A stretch of DNA of 29,713 nucleotides from Clostridia bacterium (GTDB lineage Bacteria > Bacillota > Clostridia > Christensenellales > Aristaeellaceae). Under the pieces are notes generated by a model. That model was not told the origin of the DNA. It worked only from the letters and a program-made list of their open reading frames with translations, and searched no databases. Where the stretch lies: positions 1-29,713 of the forward strand of contig JAZLIA010000109.1 in NCBI GenBank assembly GCA_045617125.1, in the 5' to 3' direction. Numbering within the stretch: position 1 is the stretch's first letter; every line of letters begins with the position of its first letter. Position numbers and translations under genes: made by a program. Below are positions 2,196 through 29,713 of the stretch, piece after piece.

Positions 2196-2238
2196 ATCGT
2201 TCCTCCCGCTATGGCTGATAAATTGATCTCCTGTCTGC

Positions 2239-2267
2239 ATTATAGGGGCTATCGTCTGCTGTGTCAA
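2239..2267 (-). promoter_or_regulatory. sigma-A-type promoter of the GH1 gene
   Basis: Minus strand: TTGACA (2262-2267), 17 nt, TATAAT (2239-2244). Both hexamers are consensus, about 40 nt upstream of the ATG. Confidence 0.7.
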
Positions 2268-2312
2268 TGCGGTTTATTCTGTCCGGCTGTTTACGACAGG
2301 AGCAATGTTAAC

Positions 2313-2368
2313 AGAATAAAACAGCCCCGTTCCGATTCACAAGTAAATGTGAACCGAAACGGGGCTGT
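2313..2368 (-). terminator. intrinsic terminator after glgP
   Basis: Minus strand: acagccccgtttcggttcac / gtgaatcggaacggggctgt form a roughly 20-bp stem (two G-U pairs), followed by TTTTATT. It lies 17 nt after the glgP stop. Confidence 0.85.
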
Positions 2369-2384
2369 ATCCTGTTTCATATTA

Positions 2385-4808: not shown

Positions 4809-4867
4809 GACGGAAATCCTCCGGATATAATGATAAATGAAGATGATGCCGAAAAAGCACCATTCAC

Positions 4868-4896
4868 ATTTTATCATATCAGTCGTTTTGTTTCAA
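4868..4896 (-). promoter_or_regulatory. sigma-A-type promoter of glgP
   Basis: Minus strand: TTGAAA (4891-4896), 17 nt, TGaTAAAAT (extended -10, hexamer 4868-4873). Confidence 0.6.
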
Positions 4897-4937
4897 TGTG
4901 CAGACCGGGCCAATTCTGCCCTCTTCAGCCTGTTTTG

Positions 4938-6503
4938 TCAGTAATCGTAACCGAAATAGAAGCCGGGGTCGTTCAGCTGATATTTTTGTCCGTTAAAGAA
5001 GAACATGGAGCCGTAGGCCGGGAGGAACTCTTCTTCAGGATCGGAACCGTTTTCCATTTCAAGGTTCCACCAGCTTTCAAAGTCCGGTACTCCCAGAGCT
5101 GCTTTGGGAGTGAACCCGGAAAGATCAGTGGAGCCGTACCCGGACGCGCGGCAATCCAGCTTTACGGCAAGCTCATGCTGAATATCGCCTTCCACGGTCA
5201 CCATAAACACGGCTTCGCCGTTTACGCCTGTAAGGCGGCCCTGCGTGTCGGAGGTGAAAACGAGATCAACCTTTTTAAATCGGATCTGCTGCATCAGATA
5301 CATCAGGCTCTGGAAGGGTGTGAAACGCTCTCTCGCTGCGCGCAATTGATCGGGCATGGTGATCACTTCCGCCATTCCGTCCGCATAAATGTGCACTCCC
5401 AGGGCGTCTGGAACCTCTCTGGCCGCGGCCAGGTATTTTTCACACATGCCGCTCAGCATTTCCAGATAGGCCTGTTCCAGATTGGGGTCGCTGATCGGTC
5501 CGAACACAGCATATTCTGCTTCCCGGCTCATTTCTTCGCCGGTCACTTCCTGATAATAGGCGCGGAAAGCGGCGTCACGGTTATCCCAGATAAGCGGGAT
5601 ATCGTTGGACAGATGCAGATATTCTTCCTCTGTGTCAAAGGTGACGATGCTGCCGTCCTTCAGGATCACGGAATACATTTTTCCGGTAAGCCAGGCCTGC
5701 TGCTCCGTTTCGCCGATCTTGTCCGTCACGGTGAACCAGGCTTCCATTTCGGGGGTGTTTTCCTGATCGCTTGTCTGGATGCGATCCCAGAAATACTCCG
5801 GAAGAGGTTGCCCGTACATTTGTTCGTAGGTGTTGGCAAACAGGATGTCATAATCCTCATAGATCACCTGGGGTACCGGCTCCCAGTCATAGCCGACAAA
5901 CATGCCGGGATTGCCGTAACCCAGCTCCCAGGAAACCGAAGCGAGCATTTCCGGCAGAAATACCTGGATCGCTTCCGGAATGTTTTCTTCATCGGCCTTC
6001 AGCTGAACGCGGAGGGAACCGTCTTTAGTGCTTTCACTGCTTACGATGCCGGGAGAAAGCAGACTGCCCACATTGGCGATCACGGTGCCCGCGGCAGTGA
6101 AGGCTTCTTTCAGAATGCTGCTGCGGATCACGCTGCGGGACGGATCCACGCCGCAGTCGCCGTAATATTCCGTATCAAAATCGTGAAACCAGGCCAGACC
6201 GTCCTTTCCCAGCACGGAGTAGCCGCTGTGCCTGGTTGAACCGTCATGCAGGGGGGTGAACACGTTGATGCTCAGAAGCGAATCCAGCCCATCCTTGCTG
6301 ATTTCGGCTTCCACCTGCTTGAAGCTTTTTCCGTCCAGAAAAAACTCCGCCTTGCCGGAGAGGGATACGTTTTCCGTGTCGAAGGCCAGGGCACAGCCCT
6401 GCTTAAAAAGGGTGGAAAGTTCGGTCTCCGCCAGGGCAAGAGAAAGCACCATGAGCAGGATCCCCAAAGTGGTGAAAAGGGAAATTCGTTTTGCTTTTTT
6501 CAT
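4938..6503 (-). CDS. secreted protein of unknown function (about 521 aa)
   Basis: I set the start at the ATG at 6503 (MKKAKRISLFTTLGILLMVLSLALA ETEL). This gives a basic n-region, a hydrophobic core and an ALA-E signal-peptidase I-like site, with a GAGG SD 6 nt upstream. The track start at 6743 would overlap the upstream peptidase gene. I recognise no domain. Confidence 0.7.
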   Translation of the reverse strand: MKKAKRISLFTTLGILLMVLSLALAETELSTLFKQGCALAFDTENVSLSGKAEFFLDGKSFKQVEAEISKDGLDSLLSINVFTPLHDGSTRHSGYSVLGKDGLAWFHDFDTEYYGDCGVDPSRSVIRSSILKEAFTAAGTVIANVGSLLSPGIVSSESTKDGSLRVQLKADEENIPEAIQVFLPEMLASVSWELGYGNPGMFVGYDWEPVPQVIYEDYDILFANTYEQMYGQPLPEYFWDRIQTSDQENTPEMEAWFTVTDKIGETEQQAWLTGKMYSVILKDGSIVTFDTEEEYLHLSNDIPLIWDNRDAAFRAYYQEVTGEEMSREAEYAVFGPISDPNLEQAYLEMLSGMCEKYLAAAREVPDALGVHIYADGMAEVITMPDQLRAARERFTPFQSLMYLMQQIRFKKVDLVFTSDTQGRLTGVNGEAVFMVTVEGDIQHELAVKLDCRASGYGSTDLSGFTPKAALGVPDFESWWNLEMENGSDPEEEFLPAYGSMFFFNGQKYQLNDPGFYFGYDY

Positions 6504-6525
6504 GATCTGCCTCATCCTGTGTGAT

Positions 6526-7560
6526 TTATTCGTTTTCACTGTCGCTTTCAACAAAGGCCTTTGCCAGCATAAGGGTATTCCTGATGCCGTCCAGATGGGT
6601 GCGCTCGTAGCCGTGGGAGGCAAACACTCCGGGCCCGATGAGGGTATACCTGATGTCGTTTCCGCTGCGCAGAGCGGTCGAGCAGTCGGAGGAATAGGAG
6701 GGATACACGTCCACAGCGTAGGAAAGACGGTTTTCTTCGGCAAGAGAGATCAACCGGTGAGTGAGAATGTGATCGTAGGGGCCGGCGCTGTCCTTTGCAC
6801 AGATGGACACCATGTTTTCTCTGCAGCCCAGATCGTCTCCCACGCACCCCATATCGATGGCCAGCATGTCCCGGATGTTTTCCGGCAGCTTCATGCTGGC
6901 CCCGTGACCGACCTCCTCATAAACCGAGAACAGCAGCGTCACGTGCCGTTTCAGCTGAACTTCTCCGCTCCTGACCCCTTTGGCCAGGGAAAGCAATATG
7001 CCGCTGGAGGCTTTGTCATCCAAATGGCGGCTCTTGATGAACCCGGAGGGGGTCACACGCGTGCGGGGATCCCATGCAATGAAGCAGCCGGGGCGGATGC
7101 CAAGGGCTTCCGTGTCCGCTGCGGAGGATACGTTTTCATCCAGCACGATCTCCATCGTTTCTTCTTCCCGGCTGTCCTTGCCCATGCCGGGATACACGTG
7201 CTGACTGGCCTTCACATGCTGAACGGTGCCGGAATACTCTTTTCCGTCATAGGTAAAGACGGTGCAGTTTTCTGTTTCCACGGTCGCATCCTGCCAGCCG
7301 CCGATGTGAGTGTAACGCAGGCGGCCGTTTGGCTTCACCGAGCGCACCATTGCGCCGAGCGTATCCACATGGCTTGCCAGCAGTGTGCCTGTGCCTTCGC
7401 CGCCAAGGTCGCACATGACGGCGCCCTTACGGGTCTTTACAGGGGAAAAGCCCATTTCCAACAGGGTATTCATAAGATAATCCGTTACTTTGAACGTATA
7501 TCCCGTTGGGGAGGGAATAGAAAGCAAATGGGAGATCTGTTCGACAGCATAATCGATCAT
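6526..7560 (-). CDS. M42 family metallo-aminopeptidase (FrvX/CelM/PepA-like)
   Basis: The N-terminus LLSIPSPTGYT and the metal-ligand blocks SHVDTLG, HLDDKASSG, EEVGHGAS and IDMGCVGDD are typical of M42. The SD is GGAGG. Confidence 0.85.
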   Translation of the reverse strand: MIDYAVEQISHLLSIPSPTGYTFKVTDYLMNTLLEMGFSPVKTRKGAVMCDLGGEGTGTLLASHVDTLGAMVRSVKPNGRLRYTHIGGWQDATVETENCTVFTYDGKEYSGTVQHVKASQHVYPGMGKDSREEETMEIVLDENVSSAADTEALGIRPGCFIAWDPRTRVTPSGFIKSRHLDDKASSGILLSLAKGVRSGEVQLKRHVTLLFSVYEEVGHGASMKLPENIRDMLAIDMGCVGDDLGCRENMVSICAKDSAGPYDHILTHRLISLAEENRLSYAVDVYPSYSSDCSTALRSGNDIRYTLIGPGVFASHGYERTHLDGIRNTLMLAKAFVESDSENE

Positions 7561-7583
7561 TATTTATCGCCTCCAATCATTCA

Positions 7584-7616
7584 ATAAAAAGACGGCGGAT
7601 CATTTTTACCCGCCGT
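7584..7616 (-). terminator. intrinsic terminator after the CofE-like gene
   Basis: Minus strand: ACGGCGG, an 11-nt loop, CCGCCGT, then CTTTTTATT. Confidence 0.6.
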
Positions 7617-7622
7617 ATGGGA

Positions 7623-8363
7623 TCATTTTTTGAGGGGCCGGATCAGGATGAACGGGGTGAGCTCGTCTCCCTGGCCGGAGGGATTATCCTTCATGGCTTC
7701 CTGGATCTGGGCATCGGAAAGCGGGAAACGGGTGCCCTTGCCCAGCTGGTTCTGGTCAAAATCGTTGGCGTCCATCACCACAGTGGGAACGCCGGTCGCT
7801 TTCTCGATCTCGTCGCACAATTCGGGCGAGTTCTGCGGGTTGATCACGCCCATATTGTGATAAACCTCAAAGCTGCTGTCGGGATAGAAACCGTCAATGC
7901 CCGCCACGTCGTGTCCGCAGATCTTGTAGAACAGCCCCTTCACACCGAAGGGACGGGTGACAGCGGAAATGAGGGCGGCAAAGAGCACCCGGGGCAGGCC
8001 GCAGATCTCGATCACCAATTGCATTTTATGCTCGCTGTGCATTCCGATGCCGGTGGAATTGTGCCCGGCGAAAGGGGCCAGATGCCGGGCCCACCAGCCG
8101 GGATGAGTGTCTTCCAGCGTGCGCACGTTGTTTGTGCACATGCCCATCACCTTGGCTGTGAAGGAAAGACAGTCGCCCTTTTCGTAAAGGGGCAGTACAT
8201 ATTTGCGTACCAGCTCGCATTGATCCTCACCGGGGTTCACAAAGTGGGTCTGGATCGCGAAACGCTGATAGCTCCGGCCTTCAGCACCCTGAATGACGCC
8301 GCGGTCAAAATAAATGATGCCGTCCTTTTCCCGGCGCTGCTGCTGTGTGTTGCGGTTGCTCAT
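7623..8363 (-). CDS. F420-0:gamma-glutamyl ligase (CofE)-like domain protein
   Basis: The overall pattern (....GD.LSFTAKVMGM..., C-terminal DNPSGQGDELTPFILIRP) resembles the CofE/F420-ligase fold family that is widely mis-annotated in Firmicutes. I moved the start to the ATG at 8363 (MSNRNTQQ), preceded by GGAGGAG. Confidence 0.5.
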   Translation of the reverse strand: MSNRNTQQQRREKDGIIYFDRGVIQGAEGRSYQRFAIQTHFVNPGEDQCELVRKYVLPLYEKGDCLSFTAKVMGMCTNNVRTLEDTHPGWWARHLAPFAGHNSTGIGMHSEHKMQLVIEICGLPRVLFAALISAVTRPFGVKGLFYKICGHDVAGIDGFYPDSSFEVYHNMGVINPQNSPELCDEIEKATGVPTVVMDANDFDQNQLGKGTRFPLSDAQIQEAMKDNPSGQGDELTPFILIRPLKK

Positions 8364-8419
8364 CGTATTCTCCTCCGGAATATACGGATACACGTTTTCC
8401 GTACCTTGTTTCCGAATGC

Positions 8420-8448
8420 ATTTTACACCCCGGGAACGGGGATGTCAA
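8420..8448 (-). promoter_or_regulatory. sigma-A-type promoter of the CofE-like gene
   Basis: Minus strand: TTGACA (8443-8448), 17 nt, TAAAAT (8420-8425). Confidence 0.6.
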
Positions 8449-8492
8449 CGATGCTGATCTGTAAGTCTTCCTTTTTTATGCATCAAAAAAAC

Positions 8493-8521
8493 TTGATACC
8501 GGCTTTACGTATGGTTATAAT
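8493..8521 (+). promoter_or_regulatory. sigma-A-type promoter of the NUDIX gene
   Basis: TTGATA (8493-8498), 17 nt, TATAAT (8516-8521). It lies back-to-back with the minus-strand promoter about 45 nt away. Confidence 0.6.
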
Positions 8522-8631
8522 ATATACGTGGATTTGTTTGCATTCAGAAATCATGACCGGCTTTTCCTATCCTCTCTGCAGGGGGACGGATCCATATCCC
8601 AAAGAAAGAGAAGAGAACTCGGGAGGCATTT

Positions 8632-9159
8632 ATGGCAGAGGTATTTGATCTGCTGGATAAAAACCGGATTCCCACTGGAGAAAAGATCTTCCGGGGAAGT
8701 CATTTCAGCAAAGGGCAGTATCACCAGGTGGTACATATCTGTATTTTCAACCAGGCCGGGCAAATGCTCATCCAGCAGCGTCAGCCCTTTAAGGAAGGCT
8801 GGCCCGGTTTCTGGGATATCACCCTGGGCGGAAGCGCTGTTCAGGGAGAAGACCCCTGTGCGGGCGCTCACAGGGAACTGATGGAGGAACTGGGGATCGA
8901 TTATGACTTTACGGATGCCCGTCCTCAGCTGACGATCAACTTTGAACACGGGTTTGATGATTATTTCATCCTGGGGATGGAACTGGACCCGTCCGAGCTG
9001 CACCTTCAGCCGGAGGAAGTGCAATCCGCCCGCTGGGCTGCCAGGGATGAGATTCATGAAATGATCGACAGGGGCGTTTTCATTCCCTACTGGCATGAGC
9101 TTATCGACCTTCTTTTTGCCAGCCGGTTCCATTGGGGCGCGCATCAGCCCCATGATTGA
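8632..9159 (+). CDS. NUDIX hydrolase
   Basis: The Nudix box GX5EX7REUXEEXGU is present as GGSAVQGEDPCAGAHRELMEELGI. The SD is GGGAGG, 5 nt upstream of the ATG. Confidence 0.85.
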   Translation: MAEVFDLLDKNRIPTGEKIFRGSHFSKGQYHQVVHICIFNQAGQMLIQQRQPFKEGWPGFWDITLGGSAVQGEDPCAGAHRELMEELGIDYDFTDARPQLTINFEHGFDDYFILGMELDPSELHLQPEEVQSARWAARDEIHEMIDRGVFIPYWHELIDLLFASRFHWGAHQPHD

Positions 9160-9219: not shown

Positions 9220-9264
9220 TATGATATAGATGATCCGGTGAAATATCCGGGTCTGGGAGGGAAA

Positions 9265-11874
9265 ATGCTTAAGCTCAAAGGAATCAGAAAAGTGTATGAT
9301 GCGGGCGATACCCGCGTGGAAGCGCTCAAGGGCGTGGATCTGAACTTTCGCCGCAGCGAGTTCGTGGCTGTGCTGGGGCCTTCCGGCTGCGGAAAGACCA
9401 CTCTGCTCAACCTGATCGGCGGCCTGGACGGCTACACCGAGGGAGATCTGGTGATACGCGGCCGTTCCACCAAGGATTATAAGGACCGGGACTGGGACAG
9501 CTACCGCAACCATTCTGTCGGTTTTGTGTTCCAAAGCTATAACCTGATCCCGCACCAGACGGTGCTGCGCAATGTGGAGCTTGCTCTCACACTCAGCGGT
9601 GTGGGCAAGCGGGAGCGCCGCCGCCGGGCGGAGGAAGCCCTGAAAAACGTGGGTCTTGGCGATCAGCTTCATAAAAAACCCGCGCAGATGAGCGGCGGTC
9701 AGATGCAGCGTGTTGCCATTGCCAGGGCGCTGGTGAACGATCCGGAGATTTTGCTGGCAGATGAGCCTACCGGCGCACTGGACAGCGCAACCAGCGTGCA
9801 GGTGATGGACCTGCTGGCCCAGATCGCGAAAAACCGTCTGGTGATCATGGTGACGCACAACCCTGAACTGGCCGATCGGTATGCGAACCGCATTATCCGC
9901 CTTCTGGACGGAAAAGTGGTGGGAGACACCGCTCCCTATGACGGCAGGGATGAGGAAACGGAAAAGACAGGACGGGAAAAGAAGCCCTCGATGAGCTTCA
10001 CGACCGCTCTGGGCCTTTCTCTCAACAACCTGATGACCAAAAAGGCCAGGACCTTCCTTACCGCGTTTGCGGGATCGATCGGTATTATCGGCATTGCCCT
10101 GATCCTGGCGCTTTCCAACGGCGTGAACAACTATATTGATCGGGTGCAGGAGGACACGCTTTCCTCCTATCCGCTGAAGATCGAAGGCTCCACCGTGGAT
10201 ATGTCCGGCATGATGGAAGCCATGATGGGCGAGGTGAGCGAGAGCCGGGCGGAGCATGAGAATGACCGGGTGTATGCTAACAGCATCCTTACCCAGATGT
10301 TCTCCTCCATGATTTCCAATGTGACCGAAAATAACCTTGCCGCGTTCAAGGTCTACCTGGACAATGCCGACACGAAGGATCTGGTGAGCGACATCAAATA
10401 CGGTTATTCCACCCCGCTTACCCTGTATTACGACAGCCCGGATTACGGTATGGTGCAGGTGAACCCCTCCGCTGTGTTTTCCAACATGGGCATGCTCAGC
10501 GGCGCGGGTGTGGGCGCGATGAACAGCTTTTCTTCCTCCAGTCTCTTTTCTTCCGGAATGGAACAGATGGACGTGTGGGAGGAACTGATGGATAATGAAG
10601 CCCTGCTGAACCTTCAGTTTGACGTGGTGGCGGGGCGTATGCCGAAAAAATACGACGAAGCGGTGGTGATCGTCAATTCCCGCAACGAGGTCAGCGATTA
10701 TGCGCTGTATGCCCTGGGCCTGAGGGATCCTGATGAACCGGCCAGGATCATGCAGGAACTGGCGATGGGCAGGGAAATTCAGGCGGATACCTCTCTTTCC
10801 TACAGCTTCGATGAGATCCTGGGCCTCAACTTCACCTACATTCCCAGGGCGCTGACATATGAGCAGCAGGGAAATGTGTGGGTGGACCGCAGCGGCGATC
10901 CCGAATACCTGCGCAGTATGACGGAGCGGGGCCTGACGGTTCGCGTGGTTGGTATCATCCGCCCCTCTGATCAGGCTGTGGCGACCTCCACATCCTCCAG
11001 GGGCGGCATAGGTTACCTTTCCTCTTTGACCGAAATGGCGCTGGAAATGACGGCTCAGACCCCCGCGGTGAAGGCTCAGATGGAGCAGCCGGACCGTGAC
11101 ATTTTTACCGGCCTTCCCTTTGCCGGCAGCGAACCCGCGATGGATATGAGCACGTTTGACATAAGCACGCTTCCCGCGTCCCAGCAGGCGATGCTTCAGG
11201 GCATGAGCCCGGAGCAGATCCAGGCGCTGGCTGAAAAGTATATGAAGAGCAGTGTGTCGGAAAATACCTATAAGGATAATATGACCCTGCTTGGCATGAC
11301 CACGAGGGATAAGCCCTCCTCCATTTCCATTTATCCCAGAAGCTTTGAAGCCAAGGACACGATCATCAATATGATCGACCGGTATAATGAGCAGGCCGAA
11401 GAAAAAGACCGTATCCGCTACACCGATTATGTGGGCCTGCTGATGAGCTCGGTTACCACGATCATCAACGCGATCAGCTACATCCTCGTGGCCTTCGTTG
11501 CGATCTCGCTGGTGGTAAGCTCCATCATGATCGGCATCATCACTTACATCAGCGTACTCGAGCGCACCAAGGAGATCGGTATCCTGCGTGCCATCGGCGC
11601 CAGCAAGCGCGATATCAGCCGTGTGTTCAATGCGGAAACGCTGATCGAAGGCTTTGCTGCCGGGATCATCGGGATCGGTGTTACATTGCTGCTGGTGATC
11701 CTGGTCAACGTGATTTTGCTGGATCTTACCTCTATTGCCAACCTGGCAGGGCTGCCTGTGGAGGCTGCTGTCGCGCTCGTTGTGATCAGCATGGTGCTCA
11801 CCTTTATTGCCGGTCTCATCCCCAGCCGCATTGCCAGCAGGAAAGACCCTGTGATCGCGCTGAGAAGCGAGTGA
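9265..11874 (+). CDS. fused ABC ATPase / FtsX-family permease (MacB-type architecture)
   Basis: The N-terminal part has Walker [10 protein letters not shown], signature [14 protein letters not shown] and Walker [16 protein letters not shown] helix follows, then an extracytoplasmic domain of roughly 400 aa and a C-terminal FtsX-like 3-TM block ([19 protein letters not shown]). I set the start at the ATG at 9265 ([11 protein letters not shown]), after GGGAGGG. Confidence 0.88.
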
Positions 11875-11912
11875 CGGAAAATGACACCGATAACAGAAAC
11901 GGAGATAATCAC

Positions 11913-13709
11913 ATGGGAAAACTGATCGGTATTGACCTGGGAACCACCAACAGCTGCATGGCCGCTATGGAGGGCAGCGAAAAAATCATCATTCCCAACA
12001 GCGAGGGGGGGCGCACCACGCCTTCTGTGGTGGCCTTCACCAAGGAGGGAGAACGCCTGGTAGGCATGGCGGCCCGCAGACAGGCGGCTGTTCATCCGGA
12101 CAGGACGATCAGCTCCATCAAGCGTGATATGGGTACGGACCGGCGTGTTACGATCGACGGGCGGAAGTATACTCCCCAGGAGATCAGTGCGATGATCCTG
12201 CAAAAGCTGAAGATCGACGCGGAAGCGTATCTGGGTGAGCAGGTGACCGATGCGGTGATCACCGTGCCCGCGTACTTTACCGACAGTCAGCGCCAGGCTA
12301 CCAAGGACGCCGGACGCATTGCCGGGTTGAACGTGCAGCGCATCATCAACGAGCCTACTGCCGCGGCTCTGGCCTACGGGGTCGATAAGGAACAGGATCA
12401 GAAGGTGATGGTGTACGACCTGGGCGGCGGCACATTCGATGTGAGTGTGCTGGATATCAGCAGCGGTGTGATCCAGGTGCTGGCTACCGCGGGAAATAAC
12501 CGCCTGGGCGGAGACGATTTTGACGAATGCATCGTGCAGTATATTCTGGAGGCCTTCAAACGGGAGAACGGGGTGGATCTTAAAACCGATATGGCTGCGC
12601 TGCAGCGGGTGCGTGAGGCTGCTGAAAAAGCCAAGATCGAGCTTTCCGCCGCCACAGTGACCGAGATCAATCTTCCCTTTATCGCCCAAAAGCAGGGAAC
12701 CCCTCTGCATCTTTCCCTGTCGCTTACCCGGGCAAAATTCAACGAGCTTACCAGACATCTGGTGGATTCCACGCTGGGACCGGTGCAGCAGGCTCTGAGA
12801 GACAGCGGCCTGAGCGCCAGCCAGTTGGGCAAGGTGCTTCTGGTGGGCGGAAGCACCCGCATTCCCGCCGTGCAGGAGGAAGTGCGGAAACTGACCGGAA
12901 AGGAGCCCTTCAGAGGGATCAACCCGGATGAATGCGTCGCGATGGGCGCCTGTCTGCAGGGAGGCGTGCTTACCGGAAAGGTGGGCGGGCTGCTTTTGCT
13001 GGATGTGACCCCGCTTTCCCTTGGCATCGAAACCCTGGGCGGCGTCACCACCCGTTTGATCGAACGCAACACCACATTGCCTGTCAAGCGCAGTCAGGTG
13101 TTTACCACAGCAGCCAATTTCCAGACCTCGGTGGATATTCACGTTCTTCAGGGCGAAAGACAGATGGCTGACCAGAACAAAACTCTGGGCCGTTTCCGGC
13201 TCACCGGCATCAAACGGGCGCTGAGAGGCATTCCGCAGATCGAAGTGACCTTTGCGATCGACGCGAACGGCATCGTGAATGTTTCCGCCCGGGATTTGGG
13301 TACCGGACATGCTCAGGAGATCACCATCACGGCTTCCTCCAATCTGAGCCGGGAGGAGATCGACCGTGCGGTGCGGGAAGCCCAGCAGTATGCTGAGGAG
13401 GATGCCCGCAGGAAGGCCGAGGCAACTGCCAAAAACGATATGGAGCAGATGGAGTACCGGGCGTCGCTTCTCATGAAAAAGCTGGACAGGGGAGAAAAGC
13501 AGGAGCTGGCCGAGGCCCTTCAGCGTGTGAAGCACGCGAAAAAGAGCAAGGATGACGGCCGTCTGGCGGATGCCAACCGGGAGCTTCAGTATCTGCTGGA
13601 TCGACTGGAGGCCAAGTATGCCGCTCAGGGCGGGAACGACCCCGAAAACAGCGGCAGCGCGGATAAGAACAGCGAACAGGAGTTCTATGACGCGGATTTC
13701 AGCAATTGA
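11913..13709 (+). CDS. Hsp70 family chaperone, DnaK paralog in a non-canonical context
   Basis: Motifs [36 protein letters not shown], the linker [14 protein letters not shown] and a helical lid are all present. I set the start at the ATG at 11913 ([10 protein letters not shown]), after GGAGA and a 7-nt spacer. There is no hrcA or grpE nearby. Confidence 0.92.
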
Positions 13710-13742
13710 TCCGCCTGAAAGCACGCGGAAAGGGGAAACGAC

Positions 13743-14561
13743 ATGTTTGGTTTTGTGACGGCGGATGTGGAAAAGCTGTCTCAGGAGCAGAAGGAAGTTT
13801 ACCGTGCCTTTTACTGCGGAGTGTGCCGGTCGCTCAAGGCCCGTCACGGAACGGCATGCGAGCTTGCTCTTTCCTACGACATGGTGTTCCTTACGATGCT
13901 GCTGATGAGTGTATACGGGGAGGAGCCGGAGGAGCATTTTGCCCGCTGTGTGCCTCATCCCGGAAAGCGTCACCGGTTTTACAAAAGTGAACTGATCGAT
14001 TATGCGGCGGATATGGGACTTATTCTCATGTACTATAAGCTCATGGATGACTGGACGGATGATCGGGACCCTGTCCGTTATGCCGGTAGCCGTATGATCC
14101 TGAGAAAGGCACGGGGGGCTGAGAATAAATGGCCCCGGCAGGCGGAGAAAATAAAGCAGTGCCTGAAGGAGCTTTCCGAGGCTGAAAAACGGGATGAAAG
14201 ACAGATCGATGTGCCTGCCCGCATATTCGGGGCGCTGATGGGGGAGCTGTTCGTTTACAGGGAAGATGGGTTTTCCCCGCTTTTATGGGAAACAGGCAGA
14301 TGCCTTGGCATGTATGTGTATCTTTGCGACGCTGCGCTGGACTTGAAGGAGGATCTGAAAAAGAAGCACTATAATCCCTTCGCAGGCTACGGAAGCAGCG
14401 GTGCATACGAAAGCCTGTGTGCGGTAATGGGACAGTGCAGCGCGGTTTATAGGCAATTACCGGTTGACAAAAACAAGGCGATTCTGGATAATATTCTGTA
14501 TTCAGGCGTGTGGGGCCGATGGAATCTGGCCCACGCACCCCGAAAGCAGGGTAAAAAATGA
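13743..14561 (+). CDS. DUF5685-like protein (uncharacterised; Cys cluster plus Asp-rich motifs)
   Basis: The N-terminus MFGFV....YRAFYCGVCRSL....LSYDMVFL matches my recollection of the DUF5685 family. It also has CVPHP, DDWTDD and DLKEDLKKKHYNPF. The SD is AAGGGGA. Confidence 0.75.
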   Translation: MFGFVTADVEKLSQEQKEVYRAFYCGVCRSLKARHGTACELALSYDMVFLTMLLMSVYGEEPEEHFARCVPHPGKRHRFYKSELIDYAADMGLILMYYKLMDDWTDDRDPVRYAGSRMILRKARGAENKWPRQAEKIKQCLKELSEAEKRDERQIDVPARIFGALMGELFVYREDGFSPLLWETGRCLGMYVYLCDAALDLKEDLKKKHYNPFAGYGSSGAYESLCAVMGQCSAVYRQLPVDKNKAILDNILYSGVWGRWNLAHAPRKQGKK

Positions 14562-14616
14562 TCCGGGCAGATGTTCCGGCTGAAAAAGACCGGCAGCCCG
14601 AAGGAGGACCGGACCG

Positions 14617-15393
14617 TTGAGCGATCCGTATCAGGTGCTTGGTGTGTCCCGCACAGCCAGTGAAGAGGAGATCAAGCGCGCCTACAGGAATCTGGCTAAA
14701 AAATATCATCCCGATCTGAATCCAAATGATCCCACTGCAGCCAAGAAGATGGAAGAGATCAATGCTGCCTATGATGCGATCAAATCCGGCAAGGCTGACA
14801 GCTACAGCTACTCCGGCAATTCCGGAAGCGGGAACCCCTACGGCAATCCGTATGGCAACCCCTACGGCAACGGTGGGAACAGCGGCTATGGCGGATATCA
14901 GAACGGGTATCAGAATAGCGGTTATTCCGGAAACGACCGTTATGCCGATCAGGAGGGGGATCCCTTTGGCGGCTTTGGTCCTTTCGGCTTTGGCCCCTTT
15001 GGCTTTGGCGGCTATCAGAGACGGCCGCAGTATCAGCCATCGGGGAGGTACCGCGGCGCCTGGCAGTATGTTCAAAGCGGTTCCTATCCGGATGCCATGC
15101 GCATCCTGAACAGCATATCAGACCGGGATGCGGAATGGTATTACGTTGCCGCGCGGGCACAGCAGGGGATGGGCAATGAAGTGACCGCGCTCAATTACGC
15201 CCGCACTGCGAGCCAGATGGCGCCGGATAATGAGGTGTTCCGTCAGTTTATGCAGGAAATGACGGGAGAGGGTGAAAGCTACCGTCAGCAGCAGAGCGGA
15301 ATGGGATTTTCCGCGTCGGGGGTATCCCGGATCTGCATCGGTTTGTGCCTGGCCAACATGTGCTGCCGCTATGGCGGCTGTTTCTTCTGCTGA
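14617..15393 (+). CDS. J-domain protein with G/Y/N/F-rich linker, TPR-like region and Cys-rich C-terminal tail
   Basis: The start is a TTG at 14617, 8 nt after AAGGAGGA. The J domain reads DPYQVLGV...[15 protein letters not shown] (HPD motif). It has no CxxCxGxG zinc-finger domain. The C-terminus is [20 protein letters not shown]. Confidence 0.88.
14830..14871 (+). repeat. in-frame 12-nt tandem repeat encoding (GNPY)x3
   Basis: ggg aac ccc tac / ggc aat ccg tat / ggc aac ccc tac / ggc aac, inside the J-protein gene. Confidence 0.9.
14965..15012 (+). repeat. in-frame repeat encoding [16 protein letters not shown] (G/F region)
   Basis: Repeated ggc ttt ggY ccY ttY units, inside the J-protein gene. 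Confidence 0.85.
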
Positions 15394-15435
15394 CAGGAAA
15401 TACAGGCAGGGCAATGCAAAAAGAGGAGGTTCATA

Positions 15436-15876
15436 ATGGGACAGAAATTCAGGATGTGGCTGATCCGCGTGATGGAGGGCCGCTATGGCACCAGAGGAAT
15501 AGATCCGTTCAATCGTTTTCTGATCATTGCTTATTTTGCGCTTACGGTTTTGAATCTGATCCTTGCCGGAGTGCTTGGAGGCACGCTTCTGCTGCCCACG
15601 GTGCTGAGTTGGGCAGCGTTCATCCTGTTTCTGTTTCGTACTTTCAGCCGCAACATTCCAAAGCGTGAGATGGAAAATGAAAAATACCTCGCTGTTTCCC
15701 AGAATGTGAAGCGTTTTTTCCGCCGTCAGGTGAACCGGGTGAAGGAAGTTAAGACCCATCGCTACCGTAAATGTACTCACTGCAAAGCGGTGCTGCGCCT
15801 GCCGCGCAAAAAGGGCACCCTGAAGGTGAACTGCCCCCGGTGCAAGCAGGAATTTTCGGTCAAAATATGGTTCTGA
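15436..15876 (+). CDS. membrane protein with C-terminal zinc ribbon
   Basis: The SD is AGAGGAGG, 7 nt upstream. Two hydrophobic helices are present (FLIIAYFALTVLNLILAGVLGG, LLPTVLSWAAFILFLF), followed by a basic linker and then CTHC...(16 aa)...CPRC. Confidence 0.8.
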   Translation: MGQKFRMWLIRVMEGRYGTRGIDPFNRFLIIAYFALTVLNLILAGVLGGTLLLPTVLSWAAFILFLFRTFSRNIPKREMENEKYLAVSQNVKRFFRRQVNRVKEVKTHRYRKCTHCKAVLRLPRKKGTLKVNCPRCKQEFSVKIWF

Positions 15877-15880
15877 TGAT

Positions 15881-15922
15881 ACAGTAAAAGGAGCCGCATG
15901 AAGGCTCCTTTACTGTATTTTA
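15881..15922 (+). terminator. intrinsic terminator closing the Hsp70 operon
   Basis: acagtaaaaggagcc / ggctcctttactgt form a 14-bp stem with one bulged A and a 7-nt loop, followed by ATTTTA. It starts 5 nt after the stop codon. Confidence 0.7.
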
Positions 15923-15993
15923 GGCTGTAGCCCTTGGAAAGCAATGGTCGTATAAACAAATGGACTGGCAGGATCAGGATCGGAGGTATCGTT

Positions 15994-16320
15994 ATGAAAG
16001 AAAAGACGGTCAAAGCATTAAAACTGGATGACAGCTTGCTTGATATGGTTCATGGAGGAAATGGTGATGCGATGCTTGATATGAATTGCATCCTCGAAGG
16101 GGGCAAAGATGCGATGCCTGACATGAATAGCAACCTCGCATCGGTTTCCTCGGTGCCATCCGTGATATTATTATATCAGACACATGAGGGGGATTGCTTC
16201 TCTGTTCTGGCGGAAAAATACAATACGTCAGTGGCGATGATTCTAAGCTTGAACCATATTGCAGATCCAGACCATGTTGAATCCGGTAGATGGATCCGGA
16301 TCCCGTGTAATCAAAAATAA
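15994..16320 (+). CDS. small LysM-domain protein with a double-glycine-type N-terminal leader
   Basis: The ATG at 15994 is preceded by GGAGG and a 7-nt spacer. The N-terminus MKEKTVKALKLDDSLLDMVHGG has no hydrophobic Sec core. The C-terminal segment YQTHEGDCFSVLAEKYNTSVAMILSLNHIADPDHVESGRWIRIP fits the LysM consensus (Y.V..GD.L..IA.KY..S...L...N.......I..GQ.L.IP). Confidence 0.75.
   Translation: MKEKTVKALKLDDSLLDMVHGGNGDAMLDMNCILEGGKDAMPDMNSNLASVSSVPSVILLYQTHEGDCFSVLAEKYNTSVAMILSLNHIADPDHVESGRWIRIPCNQK
16066..16138 (+). repeat. imperfect 42-nt in-frame tandem duplication inside the LysM gene
   Basis: gatgcgatgcttgatatgaattgcatcctcg (16066-16096) versus gatgcgatgcctgacatgaatagcaacctcg (16108-16138) match at 27/31 positions. 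A third partial copy, cttgatatg, lies at 16039-16047. Confidence 0.85.
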
Positions 16321-16394
16321 GGATCTGCGGATCTAAGGCTGGGTGAAAACTCATTATGGGAAAACCTCCGTTATGACGAACGGAAACCCTATGG

Positions 16395-16424
16395 CAGAAG
16401 TGCGTCATCTTCAGAGGTTTTTTT
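16395..16424 (+). terminator. weak candidate terminator after the LysM gene
   Basis: cagaag / cttcag form a 6-bp stem with one mismatch, followed by aggTTTTTTT. The stem is short. Confidence 0.25.
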
Positions 16425-16641
16425 CCTTTTCATAGAATGCACGGAAAAGCAGGGCATACTCCCGGCCGTTTTCACAGGCGCTGCGGCATTGCTGCTGCTT
16501 TTGGATAAGCCATTGCTTAAATTCATCGAATGACAAACCGTTTGCTCTATTCTGCAAACCGTTTTCTTCTCTTGGAATCTGCTGCAGCAGATTGTAAATA
16601 TCCATACCGTCATCCGGTGATCTTCTTTTCAGCTCGATCAT
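16411..16641 (-). pseudogene. truncated GNAT-family N-acetyltransferase remnant (N-terminal ~45 aa recognisable)
   Basis: MIELKRRSPDDGMDIYNLLQQIPREENGLQNRANGLSFDEFKQWL resembles the N-terminus of a Firmicute GNAT family that is normally about 170 aa. The ORF ends after 76 aa with unrelated sequence, and no continuation appears in the other frames. Confidence 0.5.
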
Positions 16642-16733
16642 TGTTGAGTGTCCTTCTTTTATTGCTGCCGAACCGGATCCGGCTGTTTCCTGTCCGACCG
16701 GTTATTAGTCCACGGTTCAGCGGTAAATATGCT

Positions 16734-17558
16734 CTATTCCGGAACGACATCAACGACGACTAACTCCGGGCGATTGTAAAACCTCGGAACGTGTGTTGAT
16801 TCCTTAGCCAAACCGCGGCTTATGATCATCTGAGTATTGCCCTGCTGATGAATACCGTATGTATACCTGGGAAATACTCCCTGATGCGGAGCATATATGC
16901 CGCTTAAAAGGAACGGCAACCGCCACTGCCCGCCATGCGCGTGCCCTGTCAGTACAAGATCAAACGGATATCTGCAGTAATCCTCAAACAGCTCGGGTCT
17001 ATGTGATAGCAGTATGGTAAAATAGCCGTTTGCGGATACCTGTGCAGTATTTTCGAGCGCAATTTGAAGCTCTGCGTGGCTGTCCGTTTTGTACGCGTAA
17101 GGATCATTAACACCGCAGAGGTTAATGCCGATATCTTCCAGTGTTACGCAGGCATCATCCAGCCGCGTTATATGATTCTCTTCAAGAATATGCATTTGCT
17201 GTGCAAAACGTTCGTCCGTCCCCCAGCATTCATGATTACCGGTGACATAAAAGCACGGGAAATGCCCACTGATGCCCTTGAGCAATGCCGACGCGTTATC
17301 GTCAGGCAGAATATCATCAAATATATCGCCGCCGAGCAGCACGAGATCGGGATGCTGGTTTTCTACCGCTTTTATCAGTGCCTGAGCGTTTTCACCGTAA
17401 TTGCAAGAATGCATATCAGAAACCAGCACAAGACGAAACGGTTTTTTGACTTTTGCCGAACGGATCGTATACGTTGTGACTTCCAGACCGTTATATAACC
17501 CGATCAGTATAAACGCGAGTATGATTACTGCAATGCCGATCAATACCTTCCTGCGCAA
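16734..17558 (-). CDS. membrane-anchored metallophosphoesterase (calcineurin-like)
   Basis: The motifs SDMHS, GGDIFDD, TGNHE, LSHRP and GHAHGGQ are present, with an N-terminal TM helix. I favour the TTG at 17558, which is 7 nt after GGGAGG. The GTG at 17573 used by the track overlaps that SD. Confidence 0.85.
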   Translation of the reverse strand: MRRKVLIGIAVIILAFILIGLYNGLEVTTYTIRSAKVKKPFRLVLVSDMHSCNYGENAQALIKAVENQHPDLVLLGGDIFDDILPDDNASALLKGISGHFPCFYVTGNHECWGTDERFAQQMHILEENHITRLDDACVTLEDIGINLCGVNDPYAYKTDSHAELQIALENTAQVSANGYFTILLSHRPELFEDYCRYPFDLVLTGHAHGGQWRLPFLLSGIYAPHQGVFPRYTYGIHQQGNTQMIISRGLAKESTHVPRFYNRPELVVVDVVPE

Positions 17559-17783
17559 GACAGTACCTCCCACACAAATTCCTGTTGCCGCAATTCAACA
17601 ATATTTGATTGAATTGTAATCCGAACATGGATAACTTTCGCTATCAAAACAAAGATTTTCCTTGTCTTTCTCTTTTACAAGACAGGAATCTATGCGTTCA
17701 CTGATCAAAACTCTGACTCTTTCCGTTGACTGTTGAATATTCCTTCCTTCTTCTGTCTGTGCAGAATGGGTGTTATGACTGTG

Positions 17784-25278: not shown

Positions 25279-27447
25279 TCAACGGCTGTTTTGTTCGCTT
25301 TCCTGTGACTTGACGAGCTGTTCAAACAGACCATGCTGGTTCATTAATTGGCTGTAGGTTCCTTCTTCTACGATCCCGCCGTTTTCCATCACGATGATCC
25401 GATCACAATCTTTGATGGTAGATAGACGATGCGCGACCATGATGACGGTCGCTTTGGTCTTGCAAATCTCCTCCATCACCGCCGATTGGGTGTTGTTATC
25501 CAGAGCGGATGTCGCCTCATCCAGAATCAGCAGCGCAGGTTTTCGGACAAACGCTCTTGCCAGCAGCATACACTGCTTCTGACCGCCGGAAAACCCGCCG
25601 GACATCGTTTCGGATATGATGGAATCAAGCCCGTCCGGAAGCGCGGAGATCACATCGGCGATCTGTGCCTTTTTCAGTGCTTCCCAAACCTCTTCATCGG
25701 AGATGTCATCATTCCCTAAGGTGATGTTGTAACGTACAGAGCCCGGCATCAGCGAGCTGTACTGTGCCAGAAAGCCAATGCGCCTGTTCACGAAACGCAT
25801 ATTCAGGGTCTCGATCGGATGATCGTCGAGATATACCGTACCTGAAAGCGGCTTGTTGATCCCGACGATCATGCTCAGCAACGTACTTTTGCCGCAGCCG
25901 CTCCTGCCTGTGATCCCGATGATTTCGCCGGGCGTGGCCGAGAAATTGATGCCTTCGATGCTGAACGAATCAGAAGGATTGTAGGAAAAATTGATATTTT
26001 CAAGTTTGACGCTGCCACGAATATTTCTGAGGATCTTCTGATCCGGGCTGATCTCGCTTTCCGCCTGGAACAGCTTCGAGATGTGCCGGACATATTCCGA
26101 TGCTCTGAAAGACGCGGAAAACAAATCGGTGGCTTCCAGTGCCGCGGCGGACATGATGGCATAGCTCGCGCTGAACGCGATGAAACCAGCCGCGGAAACA
26201 TGGCAGTACCAGGCTGTGATATAGAAGACCGCGACCGAAATGGCCGGCACAAAGATGCCTTTCAACTTGACGATGAGCGGAAGGTCAAAAGAATATTCAA
26301 GCCGTCTTTTGAAGATCGAAGCCCATTTGACATAGATCCGCTTTTCCGCGCCAGCGGTCTTGATCTTCTGGATGCCCTGCAAAGTGGAGAAAATGTTGTT
26401 GCGAAGCTCGGAATCCGTTTCCATTTCCATTTTCAGGATCTTCGCGTAAATTCTCTCCGATATTCCGATCCAGGACAGCTGAAGCGCCATCAACAGAAGC
26501 CCTGCCAGTGCCAGAGGACCGGACATGTGGATCATCTGCGGAATATTGACCAGTGAAAAAGCCAGGGTGACCGATGTGCAGAAAACCATTTCCACAATGA
26601 TCTCGGCAAGCGTTCTGGCGTGACGGACATAGGTGGCGACACGTCCGCTCTTGTTCTTCCGGAAAAAGGAGACCGGAAGGCACAACACTCTCGCGATCAC
26701 CGAGATCTGGGACTGTTTCGTGATCCTGAGCCTGTACAGATCCACCGTGTATTTTTTGACAGCGTTCAGGAAGCAGCGGATCAGCCCGGCAGCCGTATAG
26801 ATAAAGATCGCGGAAACGATCAGCGGGATCGCGGTGCTGCCGGCCGGAACATATTCCTTCAGAACGGTATGGCTGACAGAGGGCGTTGCCAGGTTCAGCC
26901 CCGCCACCAGCGCAGACAGAATACAGATCACAGCCCAGAATTTGCGCGGAATGATCTTCAGAATATATCTCAGAAAACCCGGAAAACCGTCGACTTTCCA
27001 GTCCAAAGGCCGATAGACCGCGTAACCGGCAGCGCCGAGCCTGACTTTGCCTGTCAGATGGCTTTTTTTGTTTTGCCCGGGGCGCAGAAAGCTGTGACCG
27101 ATTACCGCGTTTGTGATCAGGATCGGAGAACCGTTGTCCAGAAAGCCGATGATGAAATCGGTGCTGTCTTTCCATCCGGGATCCGTCATATCGATCTTTT
27201 CATACAGGATCCCGCAGGGTTCAAAGGTATATTCCAGCATTTCATCCGGATCATCCGTATCATATTCGTTGCCGGGAGTCAATCCATAGGCGTTCAGAAT
27301 ATACCGGAGGATATACCGAAGTCCTTCCGTCCTGTCACAGGCTTCCTGATCGGGAGACAGTGTGCCGAACAGGGCGGCATCGGCTTTCTGTACTGCTTCT
27401 TCGTCCTGGGCGGCCCGCCTTTTGATCGTTTCTGTATAAAGTCCCAT
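25279..27447 (-). CDS. ABC exporter (TMD-NBD half transporter) with a ~160-aa N-terminal accessory domain
   Basis: A six-TM exporter domain is followed by Walker A GRSGCGKST, signature FSGGQKQ, Walker B LILDEATSALD and H-loop VAHRLST. The N-terminal domain has no Cys/His peptidase motifs. The start lies 3 nt after the upstream stop and has a GGGAG SD. Confidence 0.88.
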   Translation of the reverse strand: MGLYTETIKRRAAQDEEAVQKADAALFGTLSPDQEACDRTEGLRYILRYILNAYGLTPGNEYDTDDPDEMLEYTFEPCGILYEKIDMTDPGWKDSTDFIIGFLDNGSPILITNAVIGHSFLRPGQNKKSHLTGKVRLGAAGYAVYRPLDWKVDGFPGFLRYILKIIPRKFWAVICILSALVAGLNLATPSVSHTVLKEYVPAGSTAIPLIVSAIFIYTAAGLIRCFLNAVKKYTVDLYRLRITKQSQISVIARVLCLPVSFFRKNKSGRVATYVRHARTLAEIIVEMVFCTSVTLAFSLVNIPQMIHMSGPLALAGLLLMALQLSWIGISERIYAKILKMEMETDSELRNNIFSTLQGIQKIKTAGAEKRIYVKWASIFKRRLEYSFDLPLIVKLKGIFVPAISVAVFYITAWYCHVSAAGFIAFSASYAIMSAAALEATDLFSASFRASEYVRHISKLFQAESEISPDQKILRNIRGSVKLENINFSYNPSDSFSIEGINFSATPGEIIGITGRSGCGKSTLLSMIVGINKPLSGTVYLDDHPIETLNMRFVNRRIGFLAQYSSLMPGSVRYNITLGNDDISDEEVWEALKKAQIADVISALPDGLDSIISETMSGGFSGGQKQCMLLARAFVRKPALLILDEATSALDNNTQSAVMEEICKTKATVIMVAHRLSTIKDCDRIIVMENGGIVEEGTYSQLMNQHGLFEQLVKSQESEQNSR

Positions 27448-27450
27448 TTT

Positions 27451-29583: not shown

Positions 29584-29713
29584 TTTTATACATATTGTGG
29601 TACAGATGAACAAGGCTGACATAGCCAAGCGATTTCAGTTCGCTGTAGGAAGCCCTGTACTGTGCCTTTCCCCATTTCTCTGTCAGCACATAACGCGCGC
29701 AGTGCTGGATCCA
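29576..29713 (-). CDS. 3' end of an unidentified gene, translationally coupled to the ABC exporter; 5' part lies outside the window
   Basis: The minus-strand frame is open from the window edge: WIQHCARYVLTEKWGKAQYRASYSELKSLGYVSLVHLYHNMYKNV, with the stop at 29576-29578. It overlaps the next start codon by 8 nt. I recognise no family. Confidence 0.45.
   Translation of the reverse strand, partial: WIQHCARYVLTEKWGKAQYRASYSELKSLGYVSLVHLYHNMYKNV

Follow-up and report, generated by a model that had tools for sequence, protein, structure and literature searches.

The window, as the whole stretch of 29,713 nucleotides from a Clostridia bacterium is called here (contig JAZLIA010000109.1), carries on its forward strand a small gene for a LysM protein, P0001. 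The protein is best explained as an accessory, rapidly diversifying one that is made of a 22-residue double-glycine (GG)-type leader, a Met/Asp-rich linker and one C-terminal LysM domain, and it has no Sec, Tat or lipoprotein signal. How might such a protein reach the cell wall, if it does? The best single reading, to which we give a probability of about 40%, is that the GG leader directs Sec-independent export of P0001 by an exporter of the PCAT family, the ATP-binding cassette (ABC) transporters containing a peptidase. A first-pass annotation of this DNA had already proposed export of this type; the constraint on the leader, the hypervariable segment after the GG and the size of 86 amino acids speak for it, while the link to a transporter has turned out to be weak and ambiguous.

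If the reading is right, the LysM gene would be transcribed alone, between two hairpins, and the leader of its product would fold into a short amphipathic helix spanning -10 to -4 from the cleavage site, whose L(-12), L(-7) and V(-4) would dock on the peptidase or peptidase-like domain of a PCAT-family exporter. The unfolded cargo of about 86 amino acids would be threaded through the membrane, and the leader would be cut off after G22, provided that a competent C39 domain is encoded elsewhere in the genome. Outside the cell, the LysM domain would fix the variable linker to peptidoglycan, either the producer's own or that of cells nearby. We infer recognition by the exporter, cleavage, export and wall binding. 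P0001 cut after G22 is 86 amino acids long. CtA, the cargo of PCAT1, has 66 amino acids (PMC6959990), and the MccV system carries a cargo of 88 amino acids, with a drop at 116 amino acids (PMC10231218). Thus, the predicted cargo is within the capacity of PCATs.

If the leader works, PCAT-type exporters carry domain-bearing, wall-targeted proteins besides bacteriocins, pheromones and peptides synthesized ribosomally and modified post-translationally (RiPPs), and genome mining for GG cargos should reach beyond peptides of less than about 80 amino acids next to their transporters. A conserved tag followed by a hypervariable exposed part would then point to strain-level interactions at the cell surface in an uncultured lineage of gut Clostridia, a lineage that is poorly sampled.

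The leader, the linker and the LysM domain

The gene and its parts are as follows; L001, a locus in a Logan assembly, is the sole orthologous locus.

15982-15986, + strand: Shine-Dalgarno sequence GGAGG, 7 nucleotides 5' of the ATG, read from the sequence
15994-16320, + strand: LysM protein gene (P0001, 108 amino acids) from the list of open reading frames (ORFs), frame intact in the window and in L001
15994-16059, + strand: double-glycine-type leader, residues 1-22 (MKEKTVKALKLDDSLLDMVHGG), putative cleavage after G22, from the matrix score and the constraint on its codons
16060-16167, + strand: hypervariable Met/Asp-rich linker, residues 23-58, from the nucleotide identity to L001
16168-16305, + strand: LysM domain, residues 59-104, followed by a conserved tail CNQK, from Pfam PF01476

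P0001 begins with MKEK, its residues 11-22 read L-D-D-S-L-L-D-M-V-H-G-G, and NGDAML... follows after G22. As the first-pass annotation had described, hydrophobic residues stand at -15 (A8), -12 (L11), -7 (L16) and -4 (V19) ahead of G21-G22, with the acidic residues D12, D13 and D17 interspersed. G21-G22 lies at the expected distance of 15-30 residues from Met1 and is also present in the sole homologue, P0002, and L11, L16 and V19 are invariant between the two proteins, so that both have Leu at -12, Leu at -7 and a hydrophobic residue at -4. In the structure of PCAT1 with CtA, the consensus of the leader is L(-12)xxxE(-8)L(-7)xxxxG(-2)G(-1); positions -10 to -4 of this leader are helical, a hydrophobic knot is made by L(-12) together with L(-7), and the residue at -4 confers specificity (PMC6959990). 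A helix at residues 13-20 of P0001, that is, at positions -10 to -3, was predicted by AlphaFold2 at low confidence.

How often does such an N-terminus arise by chance? Leaders were scored with a matrix of 14 columns made from 41 known GG leaders, and the scores are approximate. P0001 received 13.3 bits and P0002 11.1 bits, while the known leaders, scored leave-one-out, ranged from 4.8 to 31.7 bits with a median of 19.7. A score of at least 13.3 bits was reached by one of 1264 long background ORFs and by 11 of 20000 shuffled N-termini, and in the six-frame translation of the window no start-anchored N-terminus other than that of P0001 scores 8 bits or more. For one protein, or for the window, chance hardly accounts for such a match, but for a whole genome it can. 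The curated leader models of Pfam and NCBIfam, a check that the first-pass annotation had proposed, gave no match to residues 1-57 at E<=10. Since a canonical GG peptide on the sister contig L083 is equally missed by these models, the check is without power and their silence carries no weight.

Compared with L001, leader codons 1-22 have proportions of nonsynonymous and synonymous differences (pN/pS) of 0.15/0.59 (Fisher p=0.003) and form the most constrained segment of the protein; 16 of the 22 residues are identical in P0002, against 55% identity over the whole protein. The leader is thus under purifying selection at the protein level, with synonymous sites free to diverge. It had been foreseen that homologues should keep the leader and its GG, and P0002 does so; because the family consists of two members, this conservation rests on one pairwise comparison.

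The linker behaves differently. Its nucleotide identity to L001 is 50-60%, the lowest at the locus, against 85-98% in the neighbours. It contains a tandem duplication of 14 codons (16066-16096 and 16108-16138), which is a direct repeat of 31 nt whose copies, 87% identical and spaced by 42 nt, encode DAMLDMN and DAMPDMN; the motif AMPxMN is kept in P0002. The two copies are closer to each other than either is to the orthologous sequence of L001, and this suggests that the Met-x-x-Met-rich segment was recently duplicated or underwent gene conversion. Between the window and L001, proteins of the neighbouring genes are 91-96% identical with nonsynonymous-to-synonymous rate ratios (dN/dS) of 0.06-0.09, while the LysM protein is 54% identical with a dN/dS of 0.38. 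A conserved N-terminal tag before a diversifying segment is the pattern expected of an export signal followed by an exposed part, though with a single pair of sequences compared it is no more than suggestive. A conserved export tag with a diversifying extracellular part behind it is known for ComC and Blp alleles.

The C-terminal LysM domain that the first-pass annotation had read from the sequence is borne out by Pfam PF01476, which matches residues 65-104 (16186-16305) with E=2.8e-6 and 27.6 bits, above its cutoff of 20.9. P0001 and P0002 do not differ in the core LysM residues or in the tail IRIPCNQK, and the secondary structure predicted at low confidence (strand 59-61, helices 68-75 and 80-89, strand 100-102) is the beta-alpha-alpha-beta order of a LysM domain.

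P0001 is a real gene, and it varies between strains. In L001 the start lies at the same position behind the same GGAGG, with GTG as its codon; the Shine-Dalgarno sequence, called excellent in the first-pass annotation, is therefore common to both. The two genes share about 75% of their nucleotides, both are open, their only indel is of 3 nt and in-frame, and start, Shine-Dalgarno sequence, stop and length are all kept, while the other two reading frames hold 6-10 stops. An in-frame extension from a TTG at 15934 was considered as an alternative start and rejected: it has no Shine-Dalgarno sequence, its pN/pS of 0.19/0.24 is non-coding-like, and it is not hydrophobic. The 60 nt upstream of the ATG evolve as non-coding DNA between the window and L001. 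Neither a Sec signal, nor a membrane anchor, nor a lipobox was found in P0001 with the upstream extension included. The maximal Kyte-Doolittle mean over 15 residues is 1.41, and this peak lies at residues 46-60, just N-terminal of the LysM domain. Thus, the earlier statement that a Sec core and a lipobox are missing holds, and a signal peptide from an alternative start, which would have spoken against the proposal, does not appear.

Proposed export by the double-glycine route and its alternatives

Observations of two kinds, on the protein and on the exporter, weigh against export of P0001 by a PCAT. It had been claimed that the N-terminus follows the double-glycine consensus. GG agrees with it, as do L(-12), L(-7) and V(-4); position -8 does not, and is Leu (L15) in both P0001 and P0002 where the consensus has Glu, acidic residues standing instead at -6, -10 and -11. 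The leader score of P0001 falls in the lower quartile of known leaders, and at the measured rate, 2-3 chance matches are expected per whole genome. The LysM domain has a pN/pS of 0.19/0.27 against L001, which is not distinguishable from neutral, and the AlphaFold2 model, made from a two-sequence alignment, has a predicted local distance difference test (pLDDT) score of 37. This model was too poor for a fold search or for judging the proximity of C68 and C105, and was discarded for these uses. Among 5.8 billion protein clusters, the family has only two members, P0001 and P0002 (107 amino acids, 55% identity). A GG-like N-terminus is absent from all of the 149 closest LysM relatives (top score 5.3 bits), and 85 of the 149 lack a hydrophobic N-terminus, so that signal-less LysM proteins are common.

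The smallness of the family comes from wide searches. A word-indexed search gave P0002 alone. An exhaustive HMMER search gave 3217 LysM relatives, among which P0002 alone aligns over the full length; multi-LysM proteins dominate the best 150 of these 3217 matches. Additions from a profile search were rejected as unrelated LysM proteins sharing the word RYNTSVA. LysM alignment scans of viral contigs and JGI metagenomes found no relatives. A scan of metagenome DNA for L[DE][DE]SLL[DE]xVxGG gave mostly chance matches within genes; L103, L148 and L170 have plausible N-terminal leaders, on contigs too short to show transporters. When neighbouring genes were used as synteny queries, the zinc-ribbon protein gave no match in genome contigs, and dnaX gave at least 80 loci in GTDB representative genomes (the best 49% identical among the matches listed), with no LysM gene near dnaX in any of the matches listed.

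Might P0001 then be a young or decaying lineage-specific gene that does little or nothing, its LysM module a stray one on an arbitrary N-terminus? Its two sequences among billions of clusters, its presence/absence polymorphism, the near-neutral LysM domain, and the internal duplication in a hypervariable middle would all suit such a gene. However, a frame that has stayed open although the two lineages differ at about 25% of their nucleotides and the other frames fill with stops, a conserved start, Shine-Dalgarno sequence, stop and length with only an in-frame indel, significant purifying selection on codons 1-22, and the invariant LysM core and tail are hard to fit with it, and we regard this explanation as unlikely.

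It is somewhat more conceivable, though still on the unlikely side, that P0001 is a LysM protein that is not exported at all, the alternative already given in the first-pass annotation, either a mother-cell protein of the spore coat or cortex or another intracellular one, in which the N-terminal helix is an interaction or localisation motif and the GG is fortuitous. P0001 would in that case be an ordinary lineage-specific LysM gene. Many of the nearest LysM relatives without a hydrophobic N-terminus have a LysM repeat at their very start, a linked PCAT that is competent was not found, and GG-like N-termini arise by chance near 1e-3 per protein, which makes a few per genome. Small single-LysM proteins of Firmicutes include the division inhibitor YneA of Bacillus subtilis and the spore proteins SafA, SpoVID and YkzQ. 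P0001 is like these in its length of about 100 amino acids and its single LysM domain, and like the spore proteins in having no cleavable Sec signal. On the other hand, YneA has an N-terminal transmembrane anchor, while P0001 is without a hydrophobic N-terminus, and the LysM domain of SafA is N-terminal, while that of P0001 is C-terminal. In favour of a spore protein, the best NCBIfam matches of P0001 are the LysM models of SpoVID (TIGR02907, 14.0 bits against a cutoff of 169.85) and SafA (TIGR02899, 13.7 against 67.85), but these, like that of ActS, match at noise level only. P0001 does not belong to the SafA, SpoVID or YneA families. Against a spore protein in particular, neither the window nor the sister loci of 20 kb contain a sporulation gene; the gene is hypervariable and dispensable between close strains, unlike core morphogenetic proteins; and no promoter like those of sigma-E, -K, -F or -G was seen by eye in the conserved upstream blocks, which is weak evidence.

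As for the exporter, the window holds one candidate pair, to which the first-pass annotation of the LysM gene makes no reference.

27451-29583, - strand: NHLP-type ABC exporter subunit with an N-terminal C39-like domain (Pfam Peptidase_C39, ABC_membrane and ABC_tran)
25279-27447, - strand: partner ABC subunit, TIGR03797-like (433 bits, cutoff 709), in which no peptidase domain can be recognised

The C39-bearing subunit matches TIGR03796 best, with 540 bits below a cutoff of 853, and its closest solved peptidase domain is LahT150. Alignment to LahT150 (PDB 6MPZ) and to canonical relatives shows that the catalytic triad Cys/His/Asp is replaced with Asn/Tyr/Ser (ENG for ECG, YYE for NHF and NSS for NDP in comparison with LahT150), and these substitutions are common to a clade down to 41% identity. 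The pair lies 9 kb from the LysM gene, with dnaX, EamA, murG and pheST between, and is thus not adjacent; sister strains that lack the LysM gene have it too, and elsewhere it stands in different contexts; it stands in an operon with a gene for a UG26-class reverse transcriptase (RT); and no competent C39 peptidase is visible on the contig. The first-pass annotation had asked for a neighbouring C39-ABC transporter, and only part of that expectation is realised, in that a C39-like ABC pair shares the contig. P0001 has the sequence features of a GG cargo except E(-8), and no such transporter stands next to its gene.

Can P0001 reach the wall without cleavage of the leader? It might leave through the dead-C39 ABC pair and keep its leader, or be set free by lysis or in a holin-like way. 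This pair shares the contig of the LysM gene, its dead-triad domain is conserved as QxxxGENGxAxLxMILAxYKKY in the clade down to 41% identity, which suggests a binding role, and constraint on the leader is also expected where the leader stays in the mature protein. Nevertheless, the pair occurs in strains without the LysM gene and in an operon with the UG26 RT rather than with cargo genes, and nothing found here indicates that GG leaders are bound by the dead C39-like domains of this clade. In HlyB, the C39-like domain recognises parts of the substrate that are not a GG leader, which counts against this route as well, and we consider it quite improbable. Still less probable is a more elaborate scheme, in which a GG leader was recruited to send a LysM domain with a diversifying linker through a PCAT-family exporter as a Sec-independent route to the Gram-positive wall; there the exporter could be of the clade whose C39 domain turned into a non-cutting leader receptor, with the leader retained.

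Export with a GG leader by a PCAT gains from a finding on a sister contig.

L083 9972-10154, - strand: canonical double-glycine Cys-rich peptide, MEKNTEKITREELMEKFSLSDEELEQAAGG before and ANIDYGCVGECMKRKLWPYLLPACVAECIC after the cleavage site, matrix score 15.9 bits

Its cleavage context is ...LSDEELEQAAGG followed by ANIDYGCVGEC..., and it lies near a nonribosomal peptide synthetase gene and three ORFs without family match; the peptide itself has no match in Pfam or NCBIfam. As this canonical GG peptide is 5.3 kb from the dead-C39 ABC pair of L083, GG-type export exists in the lineage, which has PCAT-family exporters together with a canonical GG peptide.

Set beside known GG cargos and their exporters (CtA/PCAT1 of C. 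thermocellum, LahA/LahT, ComC/ComA and MccV/CvaB), P0001 shares a leader of about 22 residues ending in GG, leucines at both -12 and -7 and a hydrophobic residue at -4 with acidic ones in between, the absence of a Sec core, a cargo size like that of MccV and CtA, and a conserved leader ahead of a variable N-terminal part of the mature protein. In contrast to them, it ends in a folded peptidoglycan-binding LysM domain and not in a bacteriocin, pheromone or RiPP core, it has Leu at -8 and no curated leader match, and its transporter is not adjacent, the nearby one being without the catalytic triad.

Transcription and strain variation of the LysM gene

The LysM gene is its own transcription unit, set between two hairpins, in a segment that is variable between strains.

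15887-15911, + strand: intrinsic terminator hairpin of the upstream zinc-ribbon membrane-protein gene (15436-15876), from a terminator scan
15916-16408, either strand: strain-variable segment of 493 bp with only the LysM gene, its upstream region and the downstream stem, from three-way junction alignments
15926-15958, + strand: candidate promoter TGTAGC (15926-15931), 17-nt spacer, CGTATAAACA (15949-15958), from the alignment of the window and L001, two sequences only
16358-16426, + strand: long stem (AAAACCUCC ... GGAGGUUUUUUU) followed by a U-run, from a minimum-free-energy fold

The upstream hairpin has 9 pairs, 5 of them G-C, before a T-run, is kept in L001 and in L084, and splits the LysM gene from the cluster of Hsp70, DUF5685, DnaJ-like and zinc-ribbon genes. 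Both blocks of the candidate promoter are identical in L001, while the spacer differs at 6 of 17 bases. We take this element to resemble loosely the promoters of extracytoplasmic function (ECF) sigma factors, so TGTAGC-N17-CGTATAAACA may be an ECF-like promoter; a sigma-70 scan found no promoter of that class 5' of the ORF. The downstream stem folds with -29.9 kcal/mol but with a weak z of -0.92 against shuffles, its 3' half is kept in L084, and it is possibly a bidirectional terminator shared with a DUF3795 remnant on the minus strand. A riboswitch or other RNA element was considered as well, and Rfam had no match anywhere in the window.

In L084, L085 and L086, 7 nt (TGGAGTG) stand in place of the 493-bp segment between the same flanks. 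Their gene tables show the zinc-ribbon gene, whose protein is in the same 90%-identity cluster as that of the window, then 47 nt, then the DUF3795 gene. No flanking direct repeats were seen at either junction of the indel, and blastn of the 493-bp insert against plasmids gave no match; a mobile-element origin was rejected, as there are no flanking repeats and no phage or plasmid relatives. Presence and absence of the LysM gene between close strains is typical of secreted competition or signalling factors, and it sets the gene apart from the spore LysM proteins, which are core.

On the minus strand beyond the LysM gene, an ORF of 76 amino acids (16411-16641) matches with its C-terminus the end of a DUF3795 protein of 137-139 amino acids that is intact in L001 and L084, and this ORF is a remnant. 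Next to it, a gene for a membrane-anchored, YaeI-like metallophosphoesterase (16734-17573, - strand) is present in the window and absent from L001 and L084. The stretch of 1.5 kb around 16411-17573 is a rearrangement hot spot between close strains.

The ABC exporter pair with a reverse transcriptase, and other neighbours

The ABC pair belongs to a conserved module in which a gene for a UG26-class RT is followed by the NHLP-type ABC subunit with the dead C39-like domain and then by the second ABC subunit. The module was found at the following loci.

window 25279-29713, - strand: RT/ABC module
L213 6401-10882: RT/ABC module
L082 1-4734: RT/ABC module
L083 3-4667: RT/ABC module
L212 3-5330: RT/ABC module
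L088 446-6274: RT/ABC module

The RT gene precedes the ABC pair, and the frames overlap or nearly abut; the overlap in the window is between the stop of the RT gene (29578-29576) and the ATG of the exporter gene (29583). PADLOC assigns RT_UG26 in both L213 (E=8e-84) and L088 (4.6e-106). According to the main text of a survey of UG/Abi reverse transcriptases, UG26 has 35 members and an inconclusive role in defence, and ABC transporters are not mentioned in that main text (PMC9226505). This module may be more out of the ordinary than the LysM gene. The two exporter genes (25279-29583) are like export pairs of the NHLP/Nif11 type (TIGR03796 with TIGR03797) in having two subunits with these families as their best matches, and unlike them in scoring below the curated cutoffs, in the triad Asn/Tyr/Ser, and in sharing an operon with a UG26 RT and not with NHLP/Nif11 precursors. 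An upstream ORF of 60 amino acids in L089-L091 was considered as a cargo of the dead-C39 exporters and rejected, as it has no GG leader.

In four independent assemblies, the window (RT gene at 29576-29713, - strand), L082, L083 and L212, the contig ends within the RT gene, which suggests multi-copy or repeated sequence at these breakpoints. L213 alone has the full RT, of 405 amino acids, with a gene-free stretch of 480 nt upstream (5919-6400) that could be the site of a noncoding RNA.

Upstream of the LysM gene, a conserved cluster on the plus strand (11871-15876) encodes an Hsp70 paralogue, a DUF5685 protein, a J-domain protein and a membrane protein that carries a zinc ribbon at its C-terminus. 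The J-domain protein has a Gly/Tyr-rich middle and a Cys-rich hydrophobic C-terminus. The cluster is under strong purifying selection (dN/dS 0.06-0.08), and a fused ABC-ATPase/FtsX permease gene (9238-11874) precedes it. Further upstream, three consecutive large ORFs of 1547, 443 and 343 amino acids (1596-8648, + strand) have zero Pfam or NCBIfam matches, and L084 holds an M42 peptidase and other genes in their place, so that they make another strain-variable block.

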